From an uncultured Mycoplasmatota bacterium (lineage in GTDB: Bacteria; Bacillota_I; Bacilli_A; RF39; UBA660): DNA of 43,995 bases. This document shows positions 13,115 through 43,276 of this stretch, piece by piece; position 1 is the first letter of the stretch, and every line of letters starts with the position of its first letter. The stretch spans positions 1 to 43,995 of the forward strand of contig CAMYTM010000001.1 of the NCBI GenBank assembly GCA_947297555.1. Direction: 5' to 3'. The position numbers were made by a program, and so were the translations under genes. The notes beneath the pieces were generated by a model. That model had not been told where the DNA came from. It did not search any database and saw only the letters and a list, made by a program, of their open reading frames with translations.

Positions 13115-13158
13115 ATGTCTATAAGAGCGACTAAAAAAGTAGTAATAGATCCTGGTCA
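13115..13158 (+). CDS. split Amidase_3/LysM gene, segment 1 of 4 (MSIRATKKVVIDPG-H)
   Basis: SD 'agaggtg' then ATG at 13115. It encodes the start of an Amidase_3 domain ('IDPGH') and then runs into element sequence. It continues in frame at 24908. Confidence 0.8.
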
Positions 13159-13244
13159 CCCGAGTTATTTGTTCCCCAACAATAATATGTTTTGGTAAAC
13201 GATAAATCTATAAGTTAAGGTACTTTGATAGAGAAGTATCTTTT
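13155..13244 (+). repeat. direct repeat copy A (element-1 left end: att half-site + terminator-like hairpin)
   Basis: 90 bp with 85/90 identity to 15231-15320. Its 3' tail (13236-13259) also matches 17040-17063 at 23/24. Confidence 0.85.
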
Positions 13245-13397
13245 ATTATGGAAAAATTTATTTAGGATGTTGTTATGATGACTAGTGAAATCATTTACTC
13301 AGGTTATATAGAAAAATAAAAAAGACTTATGAGAAAATGGGATATGAAATAATTGATGTATAAATTTAAAATTTAAAATGAGACAAATATTTTTAAA

Positions 13398-15104
13398 ATG
13401 TATGTTACAATTGATTTAAGAGGTGAGATACTTTTGAATAAAACTTATGAAGAATTAAAAGAAATCGTGTTAGAACTTATTAAGAATGAAGAGAATGAAT
13501 GTGTAGAATTTAAAAGAGCAGAAAATGATTTTGATATAGATAAATTAGGAAAGTATTTCTCTGCTATTGGAAATGAAGCTACTTTAAAAAATAAACAATA
13601 TGGCTGGATAATTTTTGGAATTGATGATAAAACTCATGAGTTTATTAACACTAAATATCATTATGATGATAATTTTAATAATGTTAAAAAACAAATTTCA
13701 GATAATACTACTGATAATATAACTTTTATTGAGGTGTATTCTATTAAAATTTATGAAAATAGAGTTGTTATGTTTCAAGTCCCTGCTGCATCTGGAACTC
13801 CTATTAATTGGAAGGGCTTTCCTTATGGAAGAAATGGTGAATTATTAGTACCTTTGGCTTTAAATAAGATTGAACAAATTAAAGCAACGGCAAATTATGA
13901 TTGGTCTAGACAAATTATAGAAGAAGCCACTATTGATAATTTGGATGTAGAGGCTATTAAAATAGCTCGAACTCAATTTAAAAGAAAATATAAGGGCACA
14001 CCAATAGCAAATGAAATAGAAAGTTTATCAGATATAGATTTTCTTAATAAAGCAAAAGTAACTATTGATGGAAAAATTACCTATGCTGCTATGTTATTAT
14101 TAGGTAAAAATGATGATGACTATTTGATGAATGGTTATAATGCTCGTATGACTTGGAAATTATATGATGAAATTAATGTGATTGATTATGAGCATTTTGG
14201 CATTCCTTTTATTATTAATGTTGAAAAAGTAAAAAATAAAATTAGGAATTTAAGATATAGATATATGGTGAATGAAAATACGTTATTTCCTAATGAGGTA
14301 GATCAGTATGATAATTACATACTTCGTGAGTTAATAAATAATTGTATAGTACACCAAGATTACAGATTAAAAGGAATTATAAATGTAATGGAATTTAAAG
14401 ATAAGTTAATTATTACAAATGAAGGGAATTTTATCCCACAAAAAATTGAGAATGTTTTAAAAGATGGTTATTCATCTCCTTATTACCGAAATCAGTTTCT
14501 TGCCAGTGCAATGGTGAATTTAAATATGATTGATACAGTTGGGAGTGGAATAAGAAGAATCTATAATATTCAAAAAGAAAAATATTTTCCGCTACCAGAT
14601 TATGATTTGAGTGAGGATAATAGAGTAAAAGTTACATTATATGGAAAAATAATAGATGAAAATTATAGTAAAATATTATTTGAAAAAACGAATCTTGATA
14701 TAGATAAAGTCATATTATTAGATAGAGTTCAAAAGTCTTACTCTATAACTAAAGAACAAAGTGATTATTTAAAGAAAGATGATTTAATTGAAGGTAGGTA
14801 TCCCAATATTTATATTTCATCTGATATTGCAAAAATAACTAATAAGAAAGTAGATTATATTGAAAATAAAGGCTTAGATAATGCTTATTATATGGATTAT
14901 ATAATAGCTTACATAAAAAAATTTGGTAGTGCGAGTAGACAAGAAATTAATGATTTAATAAAACCAAAACTTCCTAGTAATTTATCTTCTGCACAATTAG
15001 ATAATAAAGTTCGCTATTTGTTAAGAAAAATGCGTGAAGATGGGAAAATATATAATGCTGGTAATGATACTAAGCCAGTTTGGAAAATAAAAAATGATAT
15101 TTAG
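13398..15104 (+). CDS. AlbA_2 (Schlafen-like) + HATPase_c_4 putative DNA-binding/ATP-binding regulator
   Basis: The N-terminal 'ECVEFKRAEN...GWIIFGIDD' fits the AlbA_2 pattern. 'LRELINNCIVHQDYRLKG...LIITNEG' fits the HATPase_c_4 pattern. The start is probably the in-frame TTG at 13434, which has SD 'aagaggtg' 8 nt upstream. Confidence 0.7.
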   Translation: MYVTIDLRGEILLNKTYEELKEIVLELIKNEENECVEFKRAENDFDIDKLGKYFSAIGNEATLKNKQYGWIIFGIDDKTHEFINTKYHYDDNFNNVKKQISDNTTDNITFIEVYSIKIYENRVVMFQVPAASGTPINWKGFPYGRNGELLVPLALNKIEQIKATANYDWSRQIIEEATIDNLDVEAIKIARTQFKRKYKGTPIANEIESLSDIDFLNKAKVTIDGKITYAAMLLLGKNDDDYLMNGYNARMTWKLYDEINVIDYEHFGIPFIINVEKVKNKIRNLRYRYMVNENTLFPNEVDQYDNYILRELINNCIVHQDYRLKGIINVMEFKDKLIITNEGNFIPQKIENVLKDGYSSPYYRNQFLASAMVNLNMIDTVGSGIRRIYNIQKEKYFPLPDYDLSEDNRVKVTLYGKIIDENYSKILFEKTNLDIDKVILLDRVQKSYSITKEQSDYLKKDDLIEGRYPNIYISSDIAKITNKKVDYIENKGLDNAYYMDYIIAYIKKFGSASRQEINDLIKPKLPSNLSSAQLDNKVRYLLRKMREDGKIYNAGNDTKPVWKIKNDI

Positions 15105-15203
15105 AAAGTGCAGAGAAAGTGCAGAGATTTGTATAAAAAGTGCAGTAAAAATGTTGCAAACTCCCTAAATAAGCCAAAAATTAGTGTAGCAAAAGTGCAG
15201 AGA
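15105..15203 (+). repeat. array of four AAAGTGCAG(A/T)(G/A)A motifs
   Basis: Copies at 15105-15116, 15116-15127, 15137-15148 and 15192-15203, plus degenerate copies (about 15150-15161 and 15181-15191). The array starts right after the stop codon of the AlbA_2 gene. Confidence 0.7.
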
Positions 15204-15230
15204 TTATTTTTAAATAAAGTATTGCGTAAT

Positions 15231-15320
15231 GTCACCCAAGTTATTTGTTCCCCAACAATAATATGTTGTGGTAAACGATAAATCTATAAGTTAAGGTACT
15301 TTGTTAGGAAAGTATCTTTT
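15231..15320 (+). repeat. direct repeat copy B (internal duplicate of element-1 left end)
   Basis: 85/90 identical to 13155-13244, including the CA core, the 13-nt spacer and the TTCCCCAA half-site. Confidence 0.85.
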
Positions 15321-15322
15321 TT
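15293..15322 (+). terminator. rho-independent terminator-like hairpin inside repeat copy B
   Basis: Stem 'aaggtactt'/'aagtatctt' (one G-U pair) followed by T6. The same hairpin occurs in copy A at 13217-13247. Confidence 0.45.
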
Positions 15323-15354
15323 GGTGATATAATATTAAATAGAGAGGTCTTTCT

Positions 15355-16314
15355 ATGAACAATGTAAAAAATGAACATTATATTCCTAGATTTTATTTGA
15401 AAAGATTTTCTACAGAAAGAATAAAAAGTGCTTATATGATTGATGTATATAATAAAAAGGCTCATAAGAAATTATTAAAACAAAATGTTAAAAATTTTGC
15501 TTGTATTAATAAATTTTATGATATTGATAATAATGAAATAAGAGAACAATTAGATATTCTTTTTAAATTTCCTAATATTAGTAATGATGATAAGATTAGA
15601 ATCTTAAATGACCGACAATTGATAGAACATTATTTTGCAAATGTAGAAAATCAAATAAAGCCTTTATTTGATTTAATAGAAGTCAATCATGATATAATAA
15701 ATGATATATTTTTTCGAGCTAATTTTTGTATTTTTATTAGAGATTTATCTATTAGGACTAATGGATTTCGTGAACATATGACAAAAATAGCTTCTACTTC
15801 ATTAGAACAGTTAAGAAAATTAAAAATTGAAAAAATAGGAAATTTTGATATAAGTAAATCTGCTGATGAACTAGCAAAGGTAAAACAATTACAAGCAATA
15901 GCATCTATTCCATTACTTGTAAAAGATGCAACGATTTTATTAACTGAATATAATTTTTATATTGGCATTAACAATACTAAAATTCCATTTATTATTTCAG
16001 ACCAACCTGCTTTGCCTGTCTTTGTAAAATGTAATGAGATTTGTATTCCTATTAGTTCTAAAACTGCAATTATAATGAGGGCTAAAGGGAAAAATGTTAA
16101 GTATTTAACCGATATTATTCCATTAGGTTACGAAATTGAGTTAACTGAAAAAAATGTTACATATTATAATATTGTTCAATTTAGTACCGCCAGCGAATAT
16201 TTATTTGGTAATATTAAAGAAATAGAAAGAATGATTGAATTGCAAAAATTTTCTGATACAATTCATAGTTTGGATGATAATAGTTTACATAATGAAGATT
16301 TTTATGTGAATTAA
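15355..16314 (+). CDS. DUF4238-like protein
   Basis: 319 aa. The N-terminal 'EHYIPRFYLKRFS' matches the conserved HY(V/I)PxFYLxxF start I associate with DUF4238. Confidence 0.55.
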   Translation: MNNVKNEHYIPRFYLKRFSTERIKSAYMIDVYNKKAHKKLLKQNVKNFACINKFYDIDNNEIREQLDILFKFPNISNDDKIRILNDRQLIEHYFANVENQIKPLFDLIEVNHDIINDIFFRANFCIFIRDLSIRTNGFREHMTKIASTSLEQLRKLKIEKIGNFDISKSADELAKVKQLQAIASIPLLVKDATILLTEYNFYIGINNTKIPFIISDQPALPVFVKCNEICIPISSKTAIIMRAKGKNVKYLTDIIPLGYEIELTEKNVTYYNIVQFSTASEYLFGNIKEIERMIELQKFSDTIHSLDDNSLHNEDFYVN

Positions 16315-16353
16315 TTTAAAATTATATAAAAAATAGAAATAGTTGGGTGGTAA

Positions 16354-17034
16354 ATGATAATGGAAAATAAAAAGATTGAAGAAAAACAAATTTTAGAGAA
16401 AATATATAACAATAAAAATGAAAATTTATATAAGGTAATTGATTCTATAAGTGAGAAACCTGATTTTATTTTAAAAGATTTAATTACTGATGAACTTTTT
16501 GGTGTTGAAATAACTAACATGTTTTATAATGAATTCAGTGCAAGATTACAGATTCCTGAAAATGTTAATATGATGTTGAAAAATGGTATACCAAGAAAAG
16601 CTGAAGAAGTATTAGCAAGACATAAAATGTATATTAATATTGAAAATAGTTGGCATTATATTGGGGATACAATAGGGCAATCGTTCAAAGATTATGATGA
16701 TTATATTAATGCCATTATTAATACAATAAAAGTAAAAACAGAAAAAGCAAAGAAATATAAAAAATTGGATTATATTGAATTATTTATATATGATAATGAA
16801 AATTATTTAAGATTTAAAAAAATTGAGGATTTGAAATATTTAGAGGAATCTGAAAAATTAAAAAACGCTATAAGTAATTCTCCATTCAAAAGAATATACT
16901 TTTTTACTATCATTAATAATTATTCAATGTTATTATTAAATGGTGATATTAGTTCAGGTCCTCTTGCAATATCAGATGAAAAGTTAGAAATTCATAAAAA
17001 TTATATGAAAAGTTTATTTAATCAAGATACTTAA
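16354..17034 (+). CDS. hypothetical protein (partner of the DUF4238 gene)
   Basis: 226-aa ORF, 40 bp downstream of the previous gene. SD 'gggtgg'; the start may be 16360. A terminator hairpin ('aagatac...gtatctttt') overlaps its stop codon. No recognisable domain. Confidence 0.5.
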   Translation: MIMENKKIEEKQILEKIYNNKNENLYKVIDSISEKPDFILKDLITDELFGVEITNMFYNEFSARLQIPENVNMMLKNGIPRKAEEVLARHKMYINIENSWHYIGDTIGQSFKDYDDYINAIINTIKVKTEKAKKYKKLDYIELFIYDNENYLRFKKIEDLKYLEESEKLKNAISNSPFKRIYFFTIINNYSMLLLNGDISSGPLAISDEKLEIHKNYMKSLFNQDT

Positions 17035-17086
17035 AGATGGTATCTTTTATTATGCAAAAATTTTAATAGAAAGCGAGGATTGATAA

Positions 17087-18367
17087 ATGGATTTAAATTA
17101 TGCAATTTTTAAAAGTAAACAAATAATGACTCTCAATGATTTAGCACAAATTGGTTCACACAATAAACGGGAGAAAAAAGCCTATAATTCTAACCCTGAT
17201 ATTAAGTTAGAATTAACAAAAGATAATATTGAATTAGTGCCTTTAGCAGATAAATATGTTAAAGGCTTTTATAATTTAACAAAAGAATATAAAAAAGAAC
17301 ATGATGAACGAATGGAAACAGAACGAGAAGATAGAAAAAGAAGTTTTAAACAAATGGTAGATAAATCTAAAAGTGTTGTTGCTGATGAACTCTTATTTAC
17401 AGCTACTCATGAATTTTTTAAGGATATGAATAAAGAAGAGATTAAAAAGTGAGCAGAAGTTTGTATGGATTTTGTTTATGAGGATTTGGGATATACGAAA
17501 GAGCAAGTACTACATAGTGTTATTCATTTAGACGAAAAAACACCGCATGTTCATTGTGTAGTAGTACCTTTAGTTAAAAAATATGATAAAAGAACAAATA
17601 CGGAAAGATATACGATTTCTAAAAAACAATACATTAGAGATAAAATTCATCTGTCGGAATTACAAGACTTATGCCATAAAAGATTAACTGATAATGGCTA
17701 TGATTTAGAACGAGGAATTAAACATAGTGATAATGAGAGTATTCCTATTAGAGAATATAAAAAGATAACACGAAAACTTAATCATACTTTAAGTGTTAGG
17801 AATGAAAGATTGGAAAATGCAATGACTAATTTAGAAGAACAAATGAAAAGTAATAAAGATGTGATGTTTGATAAAGAATATGTTAAAGTGAAGAAAGACA
17901 CTTTTGATACAATGAATCATGTTTTTAAAGAAACAAAAAAGGTTATGGAAATCCAACCGAAATTACAACAAGTTTTTGATGAAGTGGATAGTTATTCCCA
18001 AAATTATCTTTCTATTCAAAAGGAAAATAAAAGAATAAAGAAAGAAGTTGAAACTCTAAAAAATAAAAATAAAAAATTACAAGAAGAAAATAAAAATCTA
18101 ATTTCCTATATTAAGTTTATTTTAAAGGTTATTAAGCACTTTTTTAGAGAGTTACTACAAATTGGTAATGAGAAAACAAAAGAGGCTACTACAAATGAAA
18201 TTAAGGACTATTTTGATAATGAAGATTTTAACAAAGAAGATGTTTATGATATTGCAAAAGAAACAACTAAAGAAGATGAATTATTTGATTATGCAGATAT
18301 TTCTAGCTATTTGAAAACAAGTAAAAAGTCTTATGATAAGACAAATGATTTAGATTTAACTTTATAA
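17087..18367 (+). pseudogene. MobV-family (Mob_Pre) relaxase interrupted by one in-frame TGA
   Basis: Two track ORFs (17087-17452 and 17465-18367) share one frame and are separated only by a TGA at 17450-17452. Motifs 'HNKRE', 'NPDI' and 'HLDEKTPHVHCVVVPL' (HxDExTPHxH) are spread over both parts. The C-terminus is coiled coil. Confidence 0.7.
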
Positions 18368-18451
18368 TAAATAAAGTGATATTTTTAACAAATTTATAAG
18401 GTAAAATTTTATTTAATGCATGACAATGGTTTAACAATCTCAATGTTTGAT

Positions 18452-18479
18452 TTGACATTTATGATAATTCGTGTATAAT
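18452..18479 (+). promoter_or_regulatory. sigma-A promoter of the two-gene operon
   Basis: TTGACA (18452-18457), 16 nt, TATAAT (18474-18479), with TG immediately upstream of the -10. Confidence 0.6.
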
Positions 18480-18509
18480 AAAGTCAATTTTCGAAGGGGG
18501 AAAAGTTAT

Positions 18510-19568
18510 ATGAAATATTATTACAAGAAAAAACATGAAAAAAAGCAAGAATGGTTGGCTAGTTATTGGGTAAAACTTACTATGTTTATAATTGATAAAA
18601 TTTTAAAACAAGGAAAGGGAACTTTTAATGTAATTCATTATTTTGGAGATTTTCCAATGACAGTGAATTACGGTTTTGATACAAATTCTTTTTCTCTAGG
18701 ATTTCAAGCACAAGTTGAAGGCTGTGATAGAACTTATAGGCTTAATCCACTATATATTCTTTCTTATTTATTTGAATGTGATGATAAATGTAATTTGGAT
18801 GATTATTATGAAAGTGATGAAATAAAAGAACATGAACCTAGAATAATTCGTTTTATAAGGAAATATAATCCAAGTATTAAAGAAGTATCAAAATTTAGTT
18901 TTGCAAAACAATTACATACAGAATATAGCAATAATAAAGATGTATATTGCAAAGAAACAGGCTCGTTCATTAATACTCCTGAAAATAGAAATATTCTTCC
19001 AAGAGTTGTATATTTAAAATTTATGGCTAATTTAGAACACCAATTATATGATTTGATGTCATGGGATGCAGTTTATAAATATGCTTTAGAATTTTTAAGA
19101 GGAGATGTTGAAACTGGATTGATACCAGTAGAATTTGAACTTAATGGTGAATATAAGTATGGACATAGAAAGGCAACAATTGATTTTAATAATTTATGCC
19201 CAATTTTAACTGAAAGTGGAGAATATTTAATAGAGGAATATATGTGTTCCATTAAACCGAATGATTTTTTTTTAGATATGGTTTCAGAAAAATATCCTAG
19301 TGTCTTAAAAAATCATAGGATTACATTTGAAGAATTTCGAAAAAAAGTTATAGTTTACAATAGAGAACAAGGTAATAAACAGTTTCAAGATTGGTGGAAA
19401 GTTTTTAGGGGGGAAGGGTATCCAATCCCTGTGGGGTTGGGTGGTATTCCTCATCAAGTAATTTGCTATCCATTATTTCCACATATAGATTGTTATTTAG
19501 ATTATTGTGCAAAATTGAATATCCCATTTATAGATAGTGAAGAGAAAGAAAGGGGAAATTCGAGATGA
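18510..19568 (+). CDS. hypothetical protein, no recognisable domain (gene A of a candidate two-gene system)
   Basis: The ATG at 18510 has SD 'gaaggggg' 9 nt upstream (the track start at 18471 lacks an SD). 352 aa. Its stop overlaps the next start (ATGA at 19565-19568). Confidence 0.6.
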   Translation: MKYYYKKKHEKKQEWLASYWVKLTMFIIDKILKQGKGTFNVIHYFGDFPMTVNYGFDTNSFSLGFQAQVEGCDRTYRLNPLYILSYLFECDDKCNLDDYYESDEIKEHEPRIIRFIRKYNPSIKEVSKFSFAKQLHTEYSNNKDVYCKETGSFINTPENRNILPRVVYLKFMANLEHQLYDLMSWDAVYKYALEFLRGDVETGLIPVEFELNGEYKYGHRKATIDFNNLCPILTESGEYLIEEYMCSIKPNDFFLDMVSEKYPSVLKNHRITFEEFRKKVIVYNREQGNKQFQDWWKVFRGEGYPIPVGLGGIPHQVICYPLFPHIDCYLDYCAKLNIPFIDSEEKERGNSR

Positions 19569-21022
19569 ATTTTGATTTATATAAAGGATATCGTGGTTTA
19601 TTAGATAAGTCTTTAAATGGACAAAAAGTAACTTTAAATGAACTTAGGAAGTTTTTTCAAAAGGCTAATTTTGGTGGAAAGTTTTATCTTCAAGCCTTAG
19701 TAGTTAATCATTTAATGTTTCTAAACGGAGATAGGAATTTTAATGATTTTTCGTTGTTATATAGTTGTTTTGAAGAATCTATAAAATTTTGTTATGAAAA
19801 AGAAGATACTTTAGAAGAAATTAAAGGTTTAAAGGAGTTAAATTCTTCAAAAATAGGTAGTTTGTTTGCTGAGTTTTTATTTTCAGGATATCTTCCAATG
19901 CTATTTTATTTAGATACATACGGCATTATTTCTAAAATACCAACAAATGGTTTTATAGTAGATAATTATATGCGTCCAATAAATACAAGAGTGTTATTTG
20001 AAAATGCAACAAAAAATGATAAATCTTTGAAATTCAATGAGTTTATAAATATGATGTTTATGTATTTTTCTGAAAATCTTGATAATAGTATAATTAAAAT
20101 TAATTCTTCAGGAGAGTATCGTAATATTATACAAGTTTGTGACAAAAATTATAATTATCAAGCAACTATAAAGTCAGATGAAAAACCACCAGTTGGAACA
20201 TTTATAAAAGATAAGAAATACATTGTTAATCCTGCAGTAGGAAGAGCACAAGAAAAAAGAAGCATGGAAATTTCGCTTTTAATGCCTGAAACATCTTCTA
20301 TTTTGGTTGGGCCTGCTGGTGTAGGAAAAACTGCTATTGTTGAAGGATTGAATTATGATATTCAAAATGGTAAGATTACAAATCGCTTAAAAGATAGGCA
20401 AATATTAATGACCTCTAGTACTGAATTAGTTTCAGGCTGTTCTTTGGTAGGACAATTAGAAGATAGATTTTTAAAATTATGTCAATATGTAAAAAGACAT
20501 CCAGAAGTACTTGTGTATATTGATGAAATACACACTTTGATTGGTGGCGGTAGAGGAAGCGGCTCTACAAATGAACTTTCTAATATGATGAAACCATATC
20601 TTTCAAGTGGAGAACTACAATTAATTGGTGCTACTACTAAAGAAGAATATGAAAAATATTTTTTAGGGGAATCTGCTTTCAGAAGAAGATTTGAACCGAC
20701 TATGATAGATGAACCAGATGAAGAAACTTTAAAATGGATTTTATCAAATTGTGTTGAAAAACTTACAAAACAAACTGGAATATCTTTTGAAAGACCAGAA
20801 GAAATGGAAATATGTTTAGCAAAAATTATAGAATATTCTAATGCTGAATTTAGAAATAAAGAAGATTATCGTTATAATCCAGCACTTGCAATAAATATTT
20901 TGAAGAGAATATTTGCTACTGCTGAATATAATACTCATCAATTTATTGGAAAAGATGATATTGCTATTGGTATAAATGATTGCAGTTATACACTTGCACG
21001 AGTAGATAGCAAAAAGTTATAA
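19565..21022 (+). CDS. stand-alone Clp/Hsp100 D1-like AAA+ ATPase with unknown ~235-aa N-terminal domain (gene B)
   Basis: 'VGRAQEKRSMEISLL...ILVGPAGVGKTAIVEGL', 'VYIDEIHTLIGGG', 'LQLIGATTKEEYEKYF...AFRRRFEP' are colinear with the ClpA/ClpB/ClpC D1 module. There is no second AAA module and no Clp_N domain. Confidence 0.75.
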   Translation: MNFDLYKGYRGLLDKSLNGQKVTLNELRKFFQKANFGGKFYLQALVVNHLMFLNGDRNFNDFSLLYSCFEESIKFCYEKEDTLEEIKGLKELNSSKIGSLFAEFLFSGYLPMLFYLDTYGIISKIPTNGFIVDNYMRPINTRVLFENATKNDKSLKFNEFINMMFMYFSENLDNSIIKINSSGEYRNIIQVCDKNYNYQATIKSDEKPPVGTFIKDKKYIVNPAVGRAQEKRSMEISLLMPETSSILVGPAGVGKTAIVEGLNYDIQNGKITNRLKDRQILMTSSTELVSGCSLVGQLEDRFLKLCQYVKRHPEVLVYIDEIHTLIGGGRGSGSTNELSNMMKPYLSSGELQLIGATTKEEYEKYFLGESAFRRRFEPTMIDEPDEETLKWILSNCVEKLTKQTGISFERPEEMEICLAKIIEYSNAEFRNKEDYRYNPALAINILKRIFATAEYNTHQFIGKDDIAIGINDCSYTLARVDSKKL

Positions 21023-21126
21023 TATGTCTGAAAACTAACTTTAAGACAAGTTAGTAACACACTATGATATTGACAAGCCAATAACGAGATGTGCAAAGGG
21101 AGATACCCTTTTGAACCCCCTTTTAA

Positions 21127-21170
21127 GCAATAACTAAACAAGCTTTCGCAAGTAAAGTTATTGCCTTTTT
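21127..21170 (+). terminator. terminator-like hairpin downstream of the AAA+ gene
   Basis: Stem 'gcaataact' (21127-21135) / 'agttattgc' (21156-21164) followed by 'cttttt'. Confidence 0.4.
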
Positions 21171-21298
21171 ATTTGTATAAATACAAATAAAAAGAAAAAA
21201 GACTATCGCCAATAACACTAGCTAAAGCAACAAAACTTGCCCCGTCTTTTTTATGAAAATAACCTTAATGCTAAAGTCTAACGACTAAAGCAAAAAGG

Positions 21299-21907: not shown

Positions 21908-21989
21908 TAATAAATACACCTCTTTTTCTTTTGTTAAAGAAAGTATAACATATTGTGCTGTAAAAATCAACAATTTAGTAATTATTATG

Positions 21990-22018
21990 TTGACAAACTC
22001 AATATACGATGTTATACT
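21990..22018 (+). promoter_or_regulatory. sigma-A promoter driving the rightward module of element 1
   Basis: TTGACA (21990-21995), 17 nt, TATACT (22013-22018). A leader hairpin 'ttttgatg-taaaact-catcaaaa' follows at 22028-22050. Confidence 0.55.
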
Positions 22019-22060
22019 AGCCTCAGTTTTTGATGTAAAACTCATCAAAAGAAAGGAGGA

Positions 22061-22962: not shown

Positions 22963-23040
22963 AATAAGGAGGATTGATACATGGTTAAATTTTACGGAGG
23001 ATTCTATTTATAATTAGAATAATAAAGGGGGTTATATAAT

Positions 23041-35587: not shown

Positions 35588-35807
35588 TATAATTAAATTA
35601 GGGTACGAGGAGTGTGCTCGGAAAAGTCGACTTTATTAAAGGAAGTTTATGCAATGTTCTTAATAAGAACTTAACAAGAATGAAGTGCCAAAATTAAAGG
35701 GAAGTACTAGAGTATTTCTAGAATTGATGTACTATTCTTTGTTCAGTTCTTTTTCTTATGCTCTAAAATACTGACAAATAATAGACTATTAAGGTAATCT
35801 TATATCA

Positions 35808-36338
35808 ATGAATATGGAAAGAAATATTGAACCTTTTATTAAATTAGTTTTCCCAACAAGTTTATTGGGAGATAAGAATTTAACATCATTAGAAAGATTA
35901 CTATTAATTTACATTTTGTCACTTTGTAAGAAGTATGGATATTGTTGGGCTACTAATGATTTTTTTAGTGATAGATTTAATGTTAGTAAGCAAACAATAT
36001 CAAAAAGTATAAGTAGTTTATCTAATTATGGTTATATTGTTTTAAAGTATGATAAGAAAGAAAAGAATAATTCAAAAAGAAAAATCATGATGTCAGGGGT
36101 ATTCAAAAAAAGAATATCAGATATACAAGAAAATCTTAATACTAGTATTCAAGAAAACTTTAAACAATATAATAAAAATAATAATATAAGAAAAAATATA
36201 GGACCTGTTATAAAGTGTGATGAAGAAGGAAATATCATATCTTGGAATAATAAACCAACAATATCAGAACCTATGAGTGAAAAAGATGTTAAAGAATTAG
36301 AAGAATTAATAAATGAAATAACAAAAGGAGATGAATAA
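35808..36338 (+). CDS. helix-turn-helix protein, paralogue of 22531-22962
   Basis: See the alignment given for 22531. It holds the same position (two genes upstream of the recombinase) as in element 1. Confidence 0.6.
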   Translation: MNMERNIEPFIKLVFPTSLLGDKNLTSLERLLLIYILSLCKKYGYCWATNDFFSDRFNVSKQTISKSISSLSNYGYIVLKYDKKEKNNSKRKIMMSGVFKKRISDIQENLNTSIQENFKQYNKNNNIRKNIGPVIKCDEEGNIISWNNKPTISEPMSEKDVKELEELINEITKGDE

Positions 36339-36379
36339 TTAATTGCTTAACAAAGTCATACATTATAGAGAGGTGACTT

Positions 36380-36472
36380 ATGTTTAATATAACAGAAACA
36401 TTTAAAAAAGATTCTCCTAATTTAACTTTGTTGATAACTAATTATATAAAAAGAGTGATGGATAATGAGTAG
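36380..36472 (+). CDS. small ORF (30 aa) upstream of recombinase 2
   Basis: Not in the ORF track. SD 'agaggtga' then ATG at 36380. 'MFNITETFKKDSPNLTLLITNYIKRVMDNE' shares the FK..(D/E)..L..(L/I)IT...K pattern with the other two small ORFs. Confidence 0.4.
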   Translation: MFNITETFKKDSPNLTLLITNYIKRVMDNE

Positions 36473-36548
36473 AACAATGGTGTTATATTGTTCTTTATGG
36501 TACAATATAATTGGCTTTAATTTGTTATACAAGAAGAAAGGAGTATAA

Positions 36549-38138
36549 ATGTATAACAATATAGTAAAAGCACCAGAGTTTTACAAAGCAGGAATATATA
36601 TAAGATTATCTGAAGCAGATCAAGGAAAATCTTACGAAGCAGAAAGTGAGAGTGTCCTTAATCAAAGAAATATACTAATGAAATTTGTAAAAGATAATGG
36701 TTTTATTTTTGTAGGAGAATACGTTGATGATGGCTATTCTGGTACTGATTTTGATAGACCAGGATTTAATCTAATGATGGAAGATTTAAAAAAAGGACTT
36801 ATAAATCTTGTAATAGTTAAGGATTTATCAAGATTAGGAAGAGATCATATATTAACCGGTTATTATGTGGAAAATTATTTTCCTGAAAATGGTATACGAT
36901 TTATATCTATACAAGAAAGTTATGATAACTTTAAATTAAAATCAAGTAATGATTCTGTAATGTTTATATTTGCATGTAATGATTTTTATAGCAAACAAAA
37001 TTCAGTTAAAATTAGAAATGTATTGGAATATAAAAAAAGAAAAGGAAAATTTATTGGTAGTGCTCCAAGTTATGGGTATATGAGAGATCCTAATGATAAA
37101 GGACATTTATTACCTGATCCTGAATATGCACCCATTGTTAAGAAAATATTTGAAATGGCTAACAATGGTGTTGGTTTGTCAGAAATAACTACTTATTTAA
37201 ATGATAATAAAATTAAAACACCAAGCAGTCTCAAAAGAAAAAATCCTCGTGCGAAGAGCAAATATAATTCTATTTGGACAATATCTTCTGTAAAAAAGAT
37301 TTTAAAAAATCAAATGTATGTTGGTGATATGGTTCAGAACATTCAGTATAAAAGAGGTTACAAAACTAAAAAGAAATTGGCTGTACCTAAGGAAAATTGG
37401 ATTGTTGTTAAAAATACCCATGAGCCTCTTGTAGATAGAATGGTTTTTGAAAAAATACAGAATAATGTTAAAAGAACTAATATAACTAATATAACTAAGA
37501 GAGAAAAAAGATTATTTGAGAATTTATTATATTGTAAGGAATGTGGTAATACATTAACTATTATTTATAGAAAAAATCATAATTATTGGACAATCAATTG
37601 TAATAAATATTCAAGAGATCCAAAAAGACATTTATGTTATCCACATTTTATGCCTTATGATCAATTAGAAGAAGCATTATTAGAAGTTGTTAAAAAAACT
37701 TGCAAAAAATACTTGGATGCAATTAATGTCCCAAATCTTGCACTTGAACTAAAGGATATAAAGAAAAATAATCTTAAAATAGAAGCAAGAATATTTGATT
37801 TAGAAAAAAAAGAAAAAGAACTTCTTAATAAGTTGGATATGTTATATGAAGATAAGTTTAGGGGATTAGTATCAGATGAGATGTATAAAAGAATAGCTAA
37901 TGAAACTGAAGTATTATTAACTAAATCAAGAACTGAGGTTAAAAAGTTAAAAGCAGATGAAAAAGCAATACAAAATAAGACAGATGATTTAAAAGAATAT
38001 GAAGATAAAATAAAATCATTAATTGATCTAGAAAATCCAACTAGAGAGTTAATGCAAGCCATTATTGATAAAATAGTAATAGACAAAGATAAAAACATTG
38101 AAATAATTTATAAATTTAGTATATTAAATAGTATTTAA
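36549..38138 (+). CDS. large serine recombinase (element 2)
   Basis: 529 aa. 'AGIYIRLSEAD', 'VKDLSRLGRD', 'APSYGYMRDPNDKGHLLPD', zinc ribbon 'YCKECG' and a coiled-coil tail. Confidence 0.9.
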   Translation: MYNNIVKAPEFYKAGIYIRLSEADQGKSYEAESESVLNQRNILMKFVKDNGFIFVGEYVDDGYSGTDFDRPGFNLMMEDLKKGLINLVIVKDLSRLGRDHILTGYYVENYFPENGIRFISIQESYDNFKLKSSNDSVMFIFACNDFYSKQNSVKIRNVLEYKKRKGKFIGSAPSYGYMRDPNDKGHLLPDPEYAPIVKKIFEMANNGVGLSEITTYLNDNKIKTPSSLKRKNPRAKSKYNSIWTISSVKKILKNQMYVGDMVQNIQYKRGYKTKKKLAVPKENWIVVKNTHEPLVDRMVFEKIQNNVKRTNITNITKREKRLFENLLYCKECGNTLTIIYRKNHNYWTINCNKYSRDPKRHLCYPHFMPYDQLEEALLEVVKKTCKKYLDAINVPNLALELKDIKKNNLKIEARIFDLEKKEKELLNKLDMLYEDKFRGLVSDEMYKRIANETEVLLTKSRTEVKKLKADEKAIQNKTDDLKEYEDKIKSLIDLENPTRELMQAIIDKIVIDKDKNIEIIYKFSILNSI

Positions 38139-38187
38139 AGACTTTGTTCCTATTGGAACAAGTTAAACATAAAAATAGATAAACTAC

Positions 38188-39150
38188 TTATTGTTGAGAT
38201 TTGGTTTTAATACTATCATATATAAAGGGAATTATTATTACAGTTGATAAAAAATCAAAGCCTTTTAAAACATCCTCAGAAAATAGTGATTTATTAATTA
38301 CAGTAATTAGATAAACTATAATTAGTGCTGCTATTATTGATATATTGGTTATTTTTCTTGTAAATAGCAATTTATTAACTGTATCATTAGTTATATAATT
38401 AAATATCTTATATAATGTTAGTTTTAACTTCTTAAGAAGTTTTAGAAATGTTATATAAATTATATTTATTAGAATTGTTGGAAGACATAGCATAAAAAAT
38501 ATTATATTATCAACAATTTTAGTTAGTGTTGTTTTATATTTTTTATATAATATAAAGTCATATGATATAAATTTAATTATAGTATTGTTATTATTTTGTA
38601 TAGTATTTTTAATTTTGAAATTTTTGGATTCAAGTAAAATTGTTATATTAGATAACAAAACAGTTAAATTAATAGACAGCAAGAATACAAATGAAACAAG
38701 TTTAATTACTAAATAAAATAAAATCAAAATTTCTTTTGTAACATGATCAATGATACTAAATGAAGTTATATAAACTGGAGTCACATAAGCAGAAAGAAAT
38801 ATAATGAAAAAAATAGCTGCACCAGTATATGCGTATTTATTATCTAATGAAAAATCATTATTATCTGTATATATATTTTTAATCGATTTTATAAAAGAAA
38901 TAGATGGTATAAATAATATTGCTAAAGATAATAGAACTTTCTTGGCAAAAAATAGTATTAATAAAGAACAAATTACTAATGTTAACCATACTGAAGTTAA
39001 TTTACATTTTGTTATAGTATCTAAATTTTCTTTTTCAATTTTAGATTTTGATTCATTTTTTTCTATAAATTGTAAAAGAATAAAATTGATAGCAGCAATT
39101 CCAATAATTAAGAATTCAAAAAAATGATTATATAAAATGAATTTTAGCAT
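38188..39150 (-). CDS. polytopic membrane protein of unknown function
   Basis: 320 aa on the minus strand with SD 'agaggtg'. About 8 hydrophobic segments. It lies between recombinase 2 and the right junction. Confidence 0.55.
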   Translation of the reverse strand: MLKFILYNHFFEFLIIGIAAINFILLQFIEKNESKSKIEKENLDTITKCKLTSVWLTLVICSLLILFFAKKVLLSLAILFIPSISFIKSIKNIYTDNNDFSLDNKYAYTGAAIFFIIFLSAYVTPVYITSFSIIDHVTKEILILFYLVIKLVSFVFLLSINLTVLLSNITILLESKNFKIKNTIQNNNNTIIKFISYDFILYKKYKTTLTKIVDNIIFFMLCLPTILINIIYITFLKLLKKLKLTLYKIFNYITNDTVNKLLFTRKITNISIIAALIIVYLITVINKSLFSEDVLKGFDFLSTVIIIPFIYDSIKTKSQQ

Positions 39151-39252
39151 AAAACACCTCTATAATTTAGTTATCTATTTTATCATTTTTTTAAAATATA
39201 AACAATAGTTTGAAAAATAAGCAAAAATGTTACACTTTGATTATTGCCTGGT

Positions 39253-39593
39253 GGCGATGGTGCGGAAGTAATCTATTCCTTACGTAATAGCGATAGGTTA
39301 TCAAGGATTATTAGTGATAATTTTACTAAAGCAGGTCAAAATGTTCGTAAGTATTATCAAAGAAGGCTACCAAGTAATCCAAATCAAGATTATTATTACA
39401 TTTTAAGAAATACTCCAAATAACGAATCAATTATTGTAGAATATGGTTTTGCAGATAGTACAGGGGACGATGTTAGTCAATTGAAAAATAATTGGGAAGG
39501 TTTAGCAGAAGCCGTTGTTAAATCTTTAGCAGAATATATTGGTGTTCCTTATACTCCAGTATCTTTAGAAAATACACATATAGTAAAAAGTGG
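39253..39593 (+). CDS. split Amidase_3/LysM gene, segment 3 of 4
   Basis: 'GDGAEVIYSLRNSDRLSRII...DYYYILRNTPNNESIIVEYGFADS...' is the C-terminal half of Amidase_3 plus the start of LysM 1 ('HIVKSG'). The track ORF 39244-39624 includes element-derived ends. Confidence 0.85.
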
Positions 39594-39724
39594 GGATACA
39601 ATTTTTATGGGGAATAATGAGTAATATTTTATAATTTAATTAAAAATATATTATTATGTAAAAATAATTTGATATTTGAGTTGAAAGAATATGATATAAT
39701 GTTAGAAGAAAAGGAGTTAATATA

Positions 39725-40252
39725 ATGGACGAAGTAATAGATATTTTAGATGAAAAAACAGGTGAAAAAACAGGTAAAACTATTTCAAAGAAAAAGGCAC
39801 ATAGAATTGGAACTTGGCATGGATCAATTCATATATTAATAGTTAATTCTGAACATAATAAAACATTACTGCAAAAAAGATGTGAATTAAAAGATTTGTA
39901 TCCTAACACATGGGATATTGCAGTAGGTGGTCATATAAGTGCTGGAGAAGATGATATAACATCTGCAAAAAGAGAATTAGAAGAAGAATTAGGATTAAAT
40001 TCGTCGCAATATGAATTAAAATTTATTGAAAAAACTCAGGAAAAATTAAATAATAATGGTGTAATAAGTAATGAGTATGTTTCTATTTTTGTTGTATATG
40101 CAAATATAGATATTAACGATATTGTTCTACAAGAGGAAGAGGTTAGTGAAATAAAATGGTGTTCAAAAGAAGAATTGAATTCATTTATTAAAGATAATAA
40201 TATTATTCCTCATGTTAGAGAATATGAAATATTAAATGAACTATTGAAATAA
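39725..40252 (+). CDS. NUDIX hydrolase
   Basis: 175 aa. The Nudix box 'GGHISAGEDDITSAKRELEEELGL' fits Gx5Ex7REUxEExGU. SD 'aaggag'. Confidence 0.85.
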   Translation: MDEVIDILDEKTGEKTGKTISKKKAHRIGTWHGSIHILIVNSEHNKTLLQKRCELKDLYPNTWDIAVGGHISAGEDDITSAKRELEEELGLNSSQYELKFIEKTQEKLNNNGVISNEYVSIFVVYANIDINDIVLQEEEVSEIKWCSKEELNSFIKDNNIIPHVREYEILNELLK

Positions 40253-40296
40253 TAAAGATATTTTTGGAATTTCAATATTATAATTAATGAAAAATT

Positions 40297-40345
40297 AATC
40301 ATCCTATAAAATTTAGTGAAAACTAGAAATTAGGATGATTTTTTG
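40297..40345 (+). terminator. terminator-like hairpin after the NUDIX gene
   Basis: 10-bp stem 'aatcatccta'/'taggatgatt' (24-nt loop) followed by T5. Confidence 0.45.
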
Positions 40346-40384
40346 TGCTATAAATTATTGTTATTATTAGGTTTATCCCATATA

Positions 40385-40535
40385 TCATCCTACAAAGTAG
40401 GATGAATTTCGTAAGTACGAAATAAGAATGGTGCATATACAAATCCTTATTTTATAAGGAAAAGTGAATGTATATGCACCATCTTCTTATCCTGCTTGTG
40501 TAGAAATGTCATATTTTAATAGTTTTGTAGGATGA
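40385..40535 (+). promoter_or_regulatory. structured intergenic region: GTAGGATGA motif copies and a 13-bp inverted repeat
   Basis: Hairpin 'tcatcctac-aaa-gtaggatga' (40385-40405), palindrome 'tttcgta-ag-tacgaaa' (40407-40422), perfect 13-bp inverted repeat 'atggtgcatatac'/'gtatatgcaccat' (40428-40440 / 40470-40482) enclosing 'tccttat-ttt-ataagga', and another 'gtaggatga' at 40527-40535. Confidence 0.5.
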
Positions 40536-40616
40536 TAGACAAAACTTTCTATACTTTATGACTTGACTCTTCTTTTTAGTGGAGGTAACATGCATCATGC
40601 GAAGGAGATGGTGTAT

Positions 40617-40766
40617 ATGAGAAGGTTTAATTTTTATTTGCCTGAAGAGTTATTTGAACGAATGAAATTACTTGCAAATTACTATAACATTTCTATAACT
40701 AAATTAATGGTAGAACTACTAGAAATTGGATATATAGGTATGTTAGATACAAGAAAAAATAAATAA
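40617..40766 (+). CDS. ribbon-helix-helix (CopG/Arc-like) protein
   Basis: 'MRRFNFYLPEELFERMKLLANYYNISITKLMVELLEIGY' has the RHH beta-alpha-alpha pattern. SD 'aaggag' precedes the ATG at 40617. In-frame alternative starts are at 40590 and 40563. Confidence 0.6.
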   Translation: MRRFNFYLPEELFERMKLLANYYNISITKLMVELLEIGYIGMLDTRKNK

Positions 40767-40932
40767 ATTTATAAAAATGAGAGGGTTAGGTGAAGAATAT
40801 GAAGATAATAATTTTTAATTTAATGGAGGTTTATGATAGTAAGTAATATTGTTAGGTGTGTTATAGACATACCAAATAATATTACTAAAACAAAATTTAA
40901 AGCCATAGAATTTAATGGAGGTATTAAACTCT

Positions 40933-41112
40933 ATGGTTAAATACAAAGTTAATTTAAAATTTAAAGAAAATGGAAAATCTTTAAATGAATTAATAACTGA
41001 AGTATTAAAAATAGAACTAAATAAAAAAATAAATGAGACTTGCAATATCTTAAAAAAGGATCTACCATTCAAGAATACTCATTATTCCCAAAGTGAAGGG
41101 AGTAGTAATTAA
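40933..41112 (+). CDS. small ORF (59 aa) translationally coupled to recombinase 3
   Basis: GGAGG at 40917-40921. 'MVKYKVNLKFKENGKSLNELITEVLKIELN' is similar to the small ORF at 23041. Its stop overlaps the recombinase start (TAATG at 41110-41114). Confidence 0.55.
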   Translation: MVKYKVNLKFKENGKSLNELITEVLKIELNKKINETCNILKKDLPFKNTHYSQSEGSSN

Positions 41113-42677
41113 TGATAGGGAATAATAGTTTTAAAGTAGGAATTTATATAAGGTTATCAAGAGATGATGGAAACATTGAATCAGATAGTATTATTAGTCA
41201 AAGAAGTTTACTTAATCAATATATCAAAGAGAATAACTATAATTTAATTGATGAATATGTGGATGATGGTTTTACTGGAACAAATTTTGAAAGACCATCA
41301 TTTAAAAGAATGATTAAAGATATCGAATCCGGAAGAATTAATATGATTATTACCAAAGATATGTCAAGACTTGGTAGAGATTATATAGGTACTGGAGAAT
41401 TAATTGAAAAGTATTTTCCGAATAAAAATGTTAGATATATTGCTATTAATGATGGTATAGATACATTTATAGATAATACCAATAATGATATAGCACCATT
41501 TAAAGCAATAATGAATGATATGTATGCTAAAGATATTTCTAAAAAAGTTAAAACTAGTTTGCATTCCAGAATGAAAGAAGGATTATATGTATCTGGAAGA
41601 TGCCCTTTTGGATATATGAAAGATCCAACAAATAAGAATCATTTAGTTGTAAATAAGGAACAAGCAGAAACTGTTAAATTAATATTTGATTTAGCATTAA
41701 AGGGGAATACTTATCACTACATAGCACAATACCTAACTAAAAGGAAAATTAAAACTCCAGCATCTTATTACAACTATGTTTGGAATACAAAATGTATAAA
41801 TACAAATTGTATATCACAAGAATATGGTGTATGGGTAGATACAACAATTAAGGCAATTCTTACTAATCAAATATATGTTGGTGATACAGTTCAGGGTAAG
41901 ACTAAAAAGATTAATTATAAACTCAAAAAGACAGTTAAGAATAAACCAAATGATTTTATAATAGTCGAAAATACTCACGAAGCAATTATAGATAGAGATA
42001 TATTTAACTATGTTCAAACACTTTTGCCTAAAAATGTTAAAAGGCCAGAAAAGAAAAGTTTTTATTTACTAGATGGACTTTTATACTGTGGAGATTGCAA
42101 ACATCGTATAACCGTTAGATATCAAACTAAAACAGGAAGAAGTTATACTACTTGTGATTATTATAGAACATACTCAAAGTATCATGTTTGTACAACTCAT
42201 ACAAATAATTATGAAACACTGGAAAGAGTTATTTTAGATAATATTAGAGATGTAGGTAAAAATTATTTAGATAAGAATAAAGTAAAAGATTCTATTGGTA
42301 ATATAGAATTTGAAGACAATACTTTAAAGATTAAAAAGCAAATTGAAAGTCTAGAACTTAGTAATAATAAATTAACAGAAAATCTAGATAAGAACTATAT
42401 GAATATGTTAAAAGGTATTATTGATGAAGAACAATATATGAGAATAAGTGAAAGTCTAAAGCAAGAAATAGAAAGTAATAAATTGAGTATTGATAATCTT
42501 AAAAATGTGAATAGTGAATCTAATAAAATAGACAATAAAATGATAGAAAAATATATTAATGAATATTTATCTTTAGAAAATCCAACTAGAGAATTAATAA
42601 TTAATTTAGTTGAAAAGATTTATATCTATCAAGATAAAACGATAGATATTATATTTACATTTAAAAATGTTACATAA
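41112..42677 (+). CDS. large serine recombinase (element 3)
   Basis: 521 aa. 'VGIYIRLSRDD', 'TKDMSRLGRD', 'CPFGYMKDPTNKNHLVVN', zinc ribbon 'YCGDCKH...TCDYY' and a coiled-coil tail. Its stop codon lies inside the left arm of the attP-like palindrome. Confidence 0.9.
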   Translation: MIGNNSFKVGIYIRLSRDDGNIESDSIISQRSLLNQYIKENNYNLIDEYVDDGFTGTNFERPSFKRMIKDIESGRINMIITKDMSRLGRDYIGTGELIEKYFPNKNVRYIAINDGIDTFIDNTNNDIAPFKAIMNDMYAKDISKKVKTSLHSRMKEGLYVSGRCPFGYMKDPTNKNHLVVNKEQAETVKLIFDLALKGNTYHYIAQYLTKRKIKTPASYYNYVWNTKCINTNCISQEYGVWVDTTIKAILTNQIYVGDTVQGKTKKINYKLKKTVKNKPNDFIIVENTHEAIIDRDIFNYVQTLLPKNVKRPEKKSFYLLDGLLYCGDCKHRITVRYQTKTGRSYTTCDYYRTYSKYHVCTTHTNNYETLERVILDNIRDVGKNYLDKNKVKDSIGNIEFEDNTLKIKKQIESLELSNNKLTENLDKNYMNMLKGIIDEEQYMRISESLKQEIESNKLSIDNLKNVNSESNKIDNKMIEKYINEYLSLENPTRELIINLVEKIYIYQDKTIDIIFTFKNVT

Positions 42678-42690
42678 AAAGTGTATCTGG

Positions 42691-43276
42691 AGATACATTA
42701 TGGAGTATTGCTCGTAATAATGGAATGACTGTTGATGAATTAAAGCGTTTAAATAATTTGACGAGTAATTCTTTGTCTATTGGGCAAGTTGTAAAATTAA
42801 ACGAAGGAGAAGCTCCTACAAATAAAGATACATATATTGTTAAAAGTGGAGATACTTTGTATGGGATAGCCAATTCTTATGGAATGACTGTTGATGAATT
42901 AAAACGTATGAATAACTTAACGAGTAATGTATTGTCTATTGGGCAAGTACTTAAAGTAAGCGGAAGTACAGAACCTAGTGATGTTGATGATTATTATATT
43001 GTAAAACCTGGTGACAGTTTATATAAAATAGCGAATATGTTTAATACATCTGTAAATGAGTTAAAAAGAGTAAACAATTTAACTAGTAATTTATTAAGCG
43101 TTGGTCAAAGGTTGTTAATTCCTGGAGATACAGATTATCAGACATACACTGTAAAAAGTGGGGATACTTTATATAATATTGCAAGAAACTTTAATACAAC
43201 AGTAACTGCTATTCAAAATTTAAATAATTTGACCACTAGTACACTATCTATAGGACAACAACTTTTGATACCTTAG
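42691..43276 (+). CDS. split Amidase_3/LysM gene, segment 4 of 4 (rest of LysM 1 plus LysM 2-4)
   Basis: Four repeats of the form 'Y(I/T)VK(S/P)GD(T/S)L..IA......EL...NNLTSN.LS(I/V)GQ.L'. A terminator follows the stop at 43274-43276. Confidence 0.85.

Follow-up and report, generated by a model that had tools for sequence, protein, structure and literature searches.

How does a gene of 1.2 kb come to lie in four pieces with a mobile element at each break, and what has become of it? The question is raised by an Amidase_3-LysM gene on a single 43,995-bp metagenome-assembled contig (the window, by which we mean the whole stretch of DNA analysed) from an uncultured gut bacterium that very probably forms spores. 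Our answer, which we hold to be very likely, is that this is one chromosomal gene for a peptidoglycan hydrolase into which three unrelated elements inserted independently, every one of them bringing a large serine recombinase (LSR) of its own, and that the gene is a recurrent landing pad for such elements.

A previous reading of the window, made without database searches (hereafter the sequence-only reading), had proposed one colinear gene in four pieces, and this held. All four fragments lie in order on the plus strand, and joining them at the coordinates first proposed gave 1,203 nucleotides with an open reading frame (ORF) of 400 residues. In this spliced product Pfam found an Amidase_3 domain (PF01520) at residues 9-184 that covers profile positions 1-172 of 174 (E-value 5e-29), followed by four LysM domains. 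No single piece holds a complete Amidase_3 domain, and all four pieces still read open. A search of 5.8 billion protein clusters returned intact homologues of the amidase (P0003, 400 residues, 88% identical; P0013, 402 residues, 78% identical), and the spliced protein is colinear with uninterrupted orthologues at 88-91% identity. Chance would not be a realistic explanation for the split gene, given the order, strand and frame of the pieces, the 91% identity to an intact protein and the occurrence of the same junctions in independent assemblies.

Agreement with the homologues failed at one point. As first drawn, junction 2 reads NAGGGGDG, whereas all nine aligned homologues read NAGGGDG. The intact allele at locus L001 reads AATGCAGGAGGTGGCGAT across this junction, and the true crossover is a GG dinucleotide (Table 1), the first placement being off by 3 nucleotides, or one codon. 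We rejected that first placement (25139 joined to 39253), which adds a glycine missing from all homologues and makes the phage-type attachment site (attP) asymmetric. With the crossover at GG the extra glycine is gone, and the gene therefore has 399 codons plus a stop (1,200 nucleotides) and element 2 measures 14,116 rather than 14,113 bp. Thus the open frame first proposed stands but its total of 1,203 nucleotides and 401 codons does not. Likewise, motifs are restored precisely at junctions 1 and 3 but were not at junction 2, and the insert lengths of 11,749 and 3,097 bp were correct. After the correction, in-silico deletion of the three elements leaves a protein that aligns with its intact relatives without gaps at any of the three junctions.

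The elements carry three intact LSRs, each with Resolvase (PF00239), Recombinase (PF07508) and Zn_ribbon_recom (PF13408) domains and with RLS catalytic motifs visible in alignments; pairwise identities are 28, 37 and 34%. In LSR1 there is also a DUF4368 domain (E-value 4.8e-07), and full-length alignment with TndX gives 33% identity. Pfam gave no DUF4368 match for LSR2 or LSR3, and the best PDB match of the LSR3 catalytic domain is TnpX (2MHC). At 90% clustering LSR2 belongs to a cluster of 293 members and LSR3 to one of 920. All three are predicted to be active in this strain. It had also been stated that each insert ends with its own LSR paralogue, and there are indeed three distinct LSRs on the plus strand, but in element 2 a 320-residue minus-strand ORF lies beyond LSR2.

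The left and right attachment sites (attL and attR) have only 2 bp in common in elements 1 (CA) and 2 (GG) and 3 bp in element 3, these being GG plus one fortuitous base. We scored arms as matching positions out of 26 between the inverted arms around the core. Dyad symmetry in the attP sites of elements 1, 2 and 3 is 13/26, 20/26 and 17/26, and in the reconstructed target sites (attB) 7-9/26. Only the corrected junction 2 yields a symmetric attP2, which reads TGTTACAC-TTT-GATTATT GCCT GG AGGT AATAATC-ATT-GTGTAACA, with 4 + GG + 4 nucleotides between the inverted arms. Intact alleles read exactly as left attB arm, core and right attB arm. Such a layout is the signature of integration by a serine recombinase, without target duplication.

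The left arms of attP2 and attP3 (39223-39251 and 42661-42690) both contain AAAAATGTTACA at equal distance from the GG core, with LSRs only 37% identical. This sequence may be a shared recognition motif of the zinc-ribbon domain, which raises the question of cross-reactivity.

To survey occupancy, one genome per species was scanned with the amidase alignment, the best 80 loci were kept and fragments were mapped by tblastn. Flanks were viewed to 10 kb at most, which bounds what we can say on multiple occupancy, and two Logan loci (L002 and L003) were read beside the species genomes for junction 1. Uninterrupted alleles, for which a search of relatives had been proposed, do exist: L001 is fully intact at all junctions, and L007 and dozens of further loci also have uninterrupted alleles. 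Junction 1 is occupied in 10 of the 80 species genomes. The crossover falls at the CA of the His codon in GHGG in all nine species-genome junctions read and in both Logan loci. At least five element families with differing right ends use this site, and the LSRs beside these junctions share 99, 75, 57 and 42% identity with LSR1. Junction 2 is occupied in 4 of 80 (L008, L009, L038 and L040), always at ...GG↓TGGCGAT (the arrow marks the crossover), by at least three different element ends; LSR2 relatives of 41-54% identity adjoin it in L008, L009 and L127. Altogether junction 1 or 2 is occupied in 14 of the 80 genomes, and junction 3 in none of the 80 loci.

Empty and occupied sites are mixed among close alleles. 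Locus L004, from a close relative of the window host with an upstream flank 98.9% identical, contains a 9.4-kb relative of element 1 with both ends; its 5' fragment MSIRATKKVVIDPGH and junction 1 are identical to those of the window, and junctions 2 and 3 are empty. The near-identical allele P0137 has the attR of element 2 and an empty junction 3, and P0143 combines a different junction-2 element with an element-3-type insertion. This mixture indicates that the three insertions are independent and segregate in the population. Together with the recurrence across species, the 2-bp cores and the symmetric attP sites, the empty sites bear out the earlier claim of three independent elements, each with its own recombinase and its own target.

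Double occupancy is also recurrent. Junction 2 and a LysM site are both occupied in at least five metagenome loci from different species (L084, L094, L115, L127 and L131). The 94-residue piece that lies between junction-1 and junction-2 elements forms a cluster of 49 members, and one exact variant, annotated as gene MCI9279457.1, is present in 90 contigs and 123 blocks of the assembly collection. In another species (L164-L166, GCA_022799235.1), in which the protein begins MAKKIVIDPGH, rplM-rpsI lie upstream and the gene has the same σK-like promoter as described below, insertions of element-1 type and element-2 type occur in one amidase gene. No second assembly with all three elements was seen within flanks of up to 10 kb.

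A separate metagenome scan with LSR3 as query returned 26 relatives at 80-96% identity. In every one, the element ends 12 nucleotides past the LSR stop codon as ...AAAAATGTTACATAAAAATTGTATC[T/A]GG, joined to the G↓D(T/S)L codons of a LysM domain. Both ends were found in 16 of the 26 (3.2-6.4 kb), and here splicing restores 'Y.V..GD(T/S)L' exactly. The interrupted genes encode amidases, GH25-LysM, M23-LysM and LysM-only proteins, with differing LysM repeats used within one gene. As these junctions predict it, the target of the LSR3 family is the DNA encoding the start of the LysM domain, namely the GG of the Gly codon in GD(T/S)L. All 13 family members compared have an invariant CATAGAAT box 5-6 nucleotides before the ribosome-binding site of the small ORF-LSR3 operon, and it is kept even where the 10 nucleotides upstream diverge or are deleted. 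The box resembles the CATAnnnT -10 element of mother-cell sigma factors, but it has no fixed -35 partner and spacing varies. In the window the box site reads CCATAGAATT (40902-40911), and it is found in the same place in 12 LSR3-family loci.

LSR1 is 98-99% identical at the amino-acid level across hosts whose amidases are 91, 78 and 62% identical. Pairwise synonymous divergence (dS) among five LSR1 copies is 0.15-0.25 whatever the distance between hosts, with ratios of non-synonymous to synonymous rates (ω) of 0.02-0.055. Because dS is independent of host distance, LSR1 has spread horizontally between species, and the low ω points to strong constraint on a recombinase that is moving between them. 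On the amidase branch leading to the window we counted 17 synonymous and 5 non-synonymous substitutions; the catalytic domains of two element-1-bearing alleles differ by 36 synonymous and 2 non-synonymous changes. No frameshift or stop was found in about 30 interrupted alleles examined across species. Since the element is younger than the divergence of its hosts, this purifying selection is not decisive for function of the gene while it is interrupted.

What kind of gene is the target? A CATAnnnTA box lies 5-9 nucleotides ahead of the ribosome-binding site in 65 of 66 orthologues. Our search pattern left out the upstream AC and the A that follows the box, and in the orthologue promoters position -17 relative to it is almost always C and position -18 is A; the full footprint mAC-N16-CATAnnnTA is kept in the 65 orthologues, unsearched positions included. 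This footprint is the σK consensus of the Bacillus subtilis literature, and the lack of a conserved TTG in these promoters argues against σA. The strict pattern AC-N16/17-CATAnnnTA matched the window five times on both strands, against 7.4 matches expected, and of these the amidase promoter alone is properly placed; upstream of the LSRs and the small ORFs in the window there is no strict match. Because the σK-type promoter is so widely conserved, we regard the amidase as a probable late mother-cell gene, working in the manner of cwlC.

The window also has a CwlD-like amidase gene at 2198-2857 (TIGR02883, E-value 4e-56, under the curated cut-off) with its own intact GHGG-type motif, and a SleB-type Hydrolase_2 gene adjoins the amidase in relatives (downstream in L001 and L002). 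It is because of these two genes that we take the host to be very probably an endospore-former. The CwlD-like gene marks an endospore-former within a lineage that some records call 'Tenericutes/Mycoplasma sp.'.

The wall-binding C-terminal part of CwlC is a repeat/SPOR-type domain. Here it is replaced by four LysM repeats, and with this LysM half the amidase is not a CwlC family member by architecture; no CwlC-specific model in NCBIfam matched it. It may at most work like CwlC, with orthology putative. Its likeness to CwlC and CwlH, the mother-cell lysis amidases of B. subtilis under σK/GerE control (PMC517825), lies in an Amidase_3 domain followed by a wall-binding module and in a late mother-cell promoter, here predicted. 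The term 'CwlC-like' in the sequence-only reading is thus supported by the promoter footprint and the CwlD-like gene, but not by the C-terminal architecture. We also considered that the amidase is a prophage endolysin and rejected this on account of its σK-type promoter and its conserved chromosomal neighbours, AddAB upstream in the window and L004 and Hydrolase_2 downstream in L001 and L002.

Under the landing-pad reading, each element would have been inserted by its own recombinase, of a TnpX/TndX-like branch, through conservative exchange with a 2-bp crossover (CA, GG and GG) between attP and an attB in coding sequence. Each LSR family would read the DNA of a conserved peptide motif: GH↓GG at the zinc site of the amidase, NAGG↓GDG, and, where a LysM domain begins, G↓D(T/S)L. 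Because such motifs are conserved, the same three positions would be available, and used, in many species. If the amidase is silent in growth and needed only late in sporulation, in a cell due to lyse, its interruption would be free of cost, and a cost-free site with conserved motifs might let elements accumulate in the manner of a safe harbour. Excision of all three, if precise, would rebuild the 399-codon ORF.

Some observations weigh against this reading. Neither the exact rebuilt 399-residue protein nor the 392-residue form interrupted by element 1 only was found by exact-sequence look-up in a collection of 15 billion proteins, so for this very strain there is no recorded empty-site allele. 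The relaxase gene of element 1 has an in-frame TGA that divides it into two ORFs (17087-17452 and 17465-18367), and this copy of the element may therefore have lost mobilisation. A reading of this TGA under code 4 was weighed against the ORFs of up to 1,347 residues in the window that read through normally under code 11. The dependence on σK is suggested by a sequence footprint, and the -10 boxes of σE and σK are similar. Finally, the GH25 and M23 hydrolase genes targeted by the LSR3 family have no σK-like promoter, which weakens the safe-harbour argument, since conservation of the motif alone may explain the choice of targets.

Could the arrangement be an artefact of assembly or binning, a chimeric contig of a metagenome-assembled genome in which elements and amidase pieces were interleaved? 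The locus does come from a single metagenome contig, and repeated mobile elements often cause misassembly. Nevertheless, other samples and species, assembled independently, show the same junctions (L002-L005, L060, L164-L166 and L084-L127), the pieces are correct in order, strand and frame, and the three elements have no long repeats in common, their LSRs being only 28-37% identical, so that an artefact is very improbable. Gene callers list the pieces as ORFs of their own (e.g. MCI9279457.1, a 94-residue 'N-acetylmuramoyl-L-alanine amidase'), as would be expected if they were separate small genes or remnants of paralogues. This idea has practically nothing to recommend it over one split gene, as the pieces do not overlap, are exactly complementary, join at the codon level and are 88-91% identical to intact orthologues, and uninterrupted alleles occur in L001, L007 and dozens of other loci.

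A harder question is whether the interrupted gene is ever put together again. It may have been plainly inactivated, as a dispensable or redundant amidase with recent, unrepaired knock-outs whose fragments are bound to decay, and we give this a little less than an even chance. In its favour are the mobility of the elements, their polymorphism among close alleles, the presence of further Amidase_3 genes (e.g. the CwlD-like gene), and the fact that our σK motif searches found no excision module under sporulation control. Against decay stand the roughly 30 interrupted alleles free of frameshifts and stops and the 36:2 ratio in the catalytic domain of element-1-bearing alleles, although both could also reflect recent insertion. 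At the other extreme, the elements could take part in programmed triple DNA splicing: three excisions in the mother cell, each by its own recombinase with a sporulation-controlled factor, while the spore keeps the interrupted copy. This would agree with the σK-type promoter of 65 of 66 orthologues, with four open pieces under purifying selection (17:5 and 36:2), with a widespread and stable double interruption at junctions 1 and 2 (123 blocks, 90 contigs), with the invariant CATAGAAT box of the LSR3 operon, and with conserved small ORFs at the LSRs, as in sprB-sprA and skr-spoIVCA (PMC6957869). But neither the LSRs nor the small ORFs are preceded by a strict σK motif, the distance to a -35 element varies at the LSR3 box, LSR1 spreads horizontally, and some LSR3-family targets do not look sporulation-specific. 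Moreover, characterised members of the TnpX/TndX-like branch need no directionality factor (PMC2475636), three independent excisions would each have to be efficient, and the exact rebuilt protein is missing from the collection of 15 billion sequences. We therefore consider programmed splicing rather unlikely, if worth keeping in mind. A more specific form, in which three orthogonal LSR units fire in the same mother cell with the small ORFs as sporulation-induced directionality factors, as an endospore counterpart of the heterocyst nif genes, seems to us somewhat less likely still; in its stronger version the excisions may be sequential, each bringing the σK promoter to the next element. For this triply interrupted strain we think it more likely than not that the amidase has been lost or is seldom restored.

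Mother-cell genes with a single intervening element are well documented: skin in sigK, SPβ in spsM, vfbin in spoVFB, vrin in spoVR, gin in gerE and yin in yabG (PMC4191935; PMC5595907; PMC6957869; PMC10747680). As in that class, which includes non-phage members such as gin, an LSR element here lies in the coding sequence of an apparent mother-cell gene (by its promoter footprint), the recombinase gene is beside an att site, and precise excision, here in silico, restores the ORF. In contrast to the one element per gene found there, the 1.2 kb of the present gene hold three, with a separate recombinase and attB for every element, and Amidase_3-LysM genes are missing from the published list of targets. 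Element 1 is also clearly spreading horizontally and is no domesticated remnant.

The transposon Tn4451 pairs its recombinase with the relaxase TnpZ. Element 1 likewise pairs its LSR with a Mob_Pre relaxase, which the in-frame TGA splits in this copy, and elements 2 and 3 have none. Further likeness to Tn4451/Tn4453 and Tn5397, clostridial mobilizable and conjugative transposons whose large serine 'transposases' are TnpX and TndX, consists in the DUF4368 domain of LSR1, typical of that clade, in its 33% identity to TndX, in the TnpX match of LSR3 and in the 2-bp crossover. The two groups differ in their low identity (about 30-40%), in a cargo other than antibiotic resistance and in targets that are motif-coding sequences, where the transposons use loosely defined GA sites. 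Neither TnpX nor TndX needs an accessory factor to integrate or excise (PMC2475636).

The closest parallel for several elements in one gene comes from heterocyst-forming cyanobacteria, in which nifD of Rivularia PCC 7116 contains four elements and nifBHDK of Calothrix NIES-4101 lies in 13 parts; interrupted genes include nifD, fdxN and hupL, and about half of the elements use serine recombinases (PMC4874684; PMC11249958). There, too, several recombinase-bearing elements sit in one gene of a terminally differentiated cell. However, phylum and developmental programme are different, and excision is shown or assumed and inheritance largely vertical, as opposed to the inter-species transfer and defence cargo seen here. 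A survey that mined att sites described divergent LSRs that share a single conserved coding target, and a DUF4368-containing clade that uses many targets with a common motif (bioRxiv 10.1101/2021.11.05.467528); amidase, LysM or sporulation targets are not mentioned in it, nor are LSR families stacked in a single gene. Our literature searches turned up no endospore-former gene described with several LSR elements, no report of this amidase as a target and no LSR family that targets LysM motifs. Even so, the arrangement is not as singular as first proposed: double occupancy is recurrent, and genes with multiple elements exist in cyanobacteria.

If the landing-pad reading is correct, mobile elements of at least three families would dock at one late-sporulation wall gene in many uncultured gut Bacilli and would ferry defence systems (Avs2, AbiE and restriction-modification) between species. 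The list of sporulation intervening elements would gain a new gene and an arrangement of several elements per gene so far described only for heterocyst genes. The gene would also be a natural case in which to see whether several independent recombinase units can act in concert within one developmental window. Three divergent LSRs with defined attP/attB pairs, one of which reads LysM-motif DNA, would also be candidate orthogonal tools for genome engineering. Because pipelines call the fragments separate small 'amidase' genes, as with MCI9279457.1, the phenomenon is hidden.

Table 1. Positions of the amidase pieces, the three elements and their genes in the window.
Feature	Position	Strand	Remarks
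Predicted σK-type promoter of amidase gene	13070-13097	+	-35 'AC' 13070-13071; -10 'CATACTTTA' 13089-13097
Ribosome-binding site of amidase gene	13102-13109	+	AGAGGTGA
Amidase segment 1	13115-13158	+	MSIRATKKVVIDPG + CA of His15; core CA 13157-13158 (attL1)
Element 1	13159-24907	+	11,749 bp; integrative mobilizable; right core CA 24906-24907
Schlafen/AlbA_2-HATPase_c_4 gene	13398-15104		element 1 cargo
DUF4238 gene	15355-16314		element 1 cargo
Mob_Pre relaxase	17087-18367		element 1; in-frame TGA 17450-17452
365-residue ORF + ClpA-like AAA	18471-21022		element 1 cargo
HTH_3 regulator	21299-22087	-	element 1
HTH_36/Rep-like	22531-22962		element 1
48-residue small ORF	23041-23187	+	just upstream of LSR1; in all LSR1-family loci; resembles small ORF upstream of LSR3
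LSR1	23251-24849	+	532 residues; DUF4368 C-terminal domain, TnpX/TndX-like
Amidase segment 2	24908-25135	+	corrected end; core GG 25134-25135 (attL2)
Element 2	25136-39251	+	14,116 bp; defence-gene island; right core GG 39250-39251 (attR2)
Avs2	25612-29655		element 2; PADLOC E-value 1e-174
AbiEi	29942-30544		element 2; PADLOC E-value 2e-59
Fic/PDC-S72	30557-31393		element 2; PADLOC E-value 3e-81
Type III Mod	31374-33284		element 2; methyltransferase E-value 5e-73
Type III Res	33287-35587		element 2; restriction endonuclease E-value 9e-17
HTH_36/Rep-like	35808-36338		element 2
LSR2	36549-38138	+	529 residues; large serine recombinase
320-residue ORF	38188-39150	-	between LSR2 and attR2
Amidase segment 3	39252-39593	+	corrected start; core GG 39592-39593 (attL3)
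Element 3	39594-42690	+	3,097 bp; mini-element in LysM motif; right core GG 42689-42690
NUDIX	39725-40252		element 3
Arc/RHH-like 67-residue ORF	40563-40766		element 3
Small ORF	40915-41112		element 3; overlaps LSR3 start
LSR3	41112-42677	+	521 residues; large serine recombinase
Amidase segment 4	42691-43276	+	remainder of LysM 1, LysM 2-4, stop codon

The three inserts had been said to form a defence island together. This is true of element 2, which has Avs2, AbiEi with PDC-S72 and a type III restriction-modification system, but not of elements 1 and 3. PADLOC gave a single marginal match and no convincing defence hits for the proteins of element 1, and element 3 consists of NUDIX, Arc/RHH-like ORF, small ORF and LSR3 only. 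Prophage origin was considered for the elements and rejected: among ten element proteins PHROGs matched only integrase, replication-initiator-like and Arc-like families, and there was no structural match.

The relaxase and the HTH_3 to HTH_36-small ORF-LSR1 modules of element 1 are 91-97% identical at the nucleotide level in L002-L005 and L060, and the cargo around them varies. In the E2-type elements of L164 and L165 (compared over L164 10286-20285), the end module of HTH_36, small ORF, LSR2 and minus-strand ORF is kept and the defence cargo is swapped, AbiEii and a type I restriction-modification system standing in place of the Avs2, AbiEi/Fic and type III system of the window. The minus-strand ORF, of 317-320 residues, is thus also found in another species (L164/L165, 19915-20285+); other junction-2 elements are without it, and their LSRs end 100-150 nucleotides from the junction. 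Neither this ORF nor a 115-residue ORF at the left end of element 2 had a significant match in Pfam, PHROGs or NCBIfam.

Short ORFs lie upstream of or overlap each LSR (that of LSR2 at 36380-36472) and loosely follow VKY.V.FK....L..IIT..L.K..L. Throughout the LSR1- and LSR3-family loci these ORFs are conserved, and none had a significant Pfam, PHROG or NCBIfam match. From their position they are candidate directionality or accessory factors, by analogy with sprB-sprA and skr-spoIVCA, in which a small gene is beside the recombinase (PMC6957869).

Divergence between the window (from 11000 to 13158 for the upstream flank) and L004 (1-551) is a mosaic: 98.9% identity in the upstream flank, about 95% in the element-1 modules, a dS of 0.37 in the amidase body and 89% identity in the downstream flank. 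This suggests homologous recombination around the locus. Near position 7020 of L007, an element-1-like left end (cccaggttatttgttctccaacaaaaatat) abuts '...AGTAGTTTTGCACAGTGGCA↓', which resembles the VVL.SGH start of another Amidase_3 paralogue and lies 3 kb upstream of the intact amidase-LysM gene; the LSR1 family may use GHGG-type sites in paralogous amidases too.

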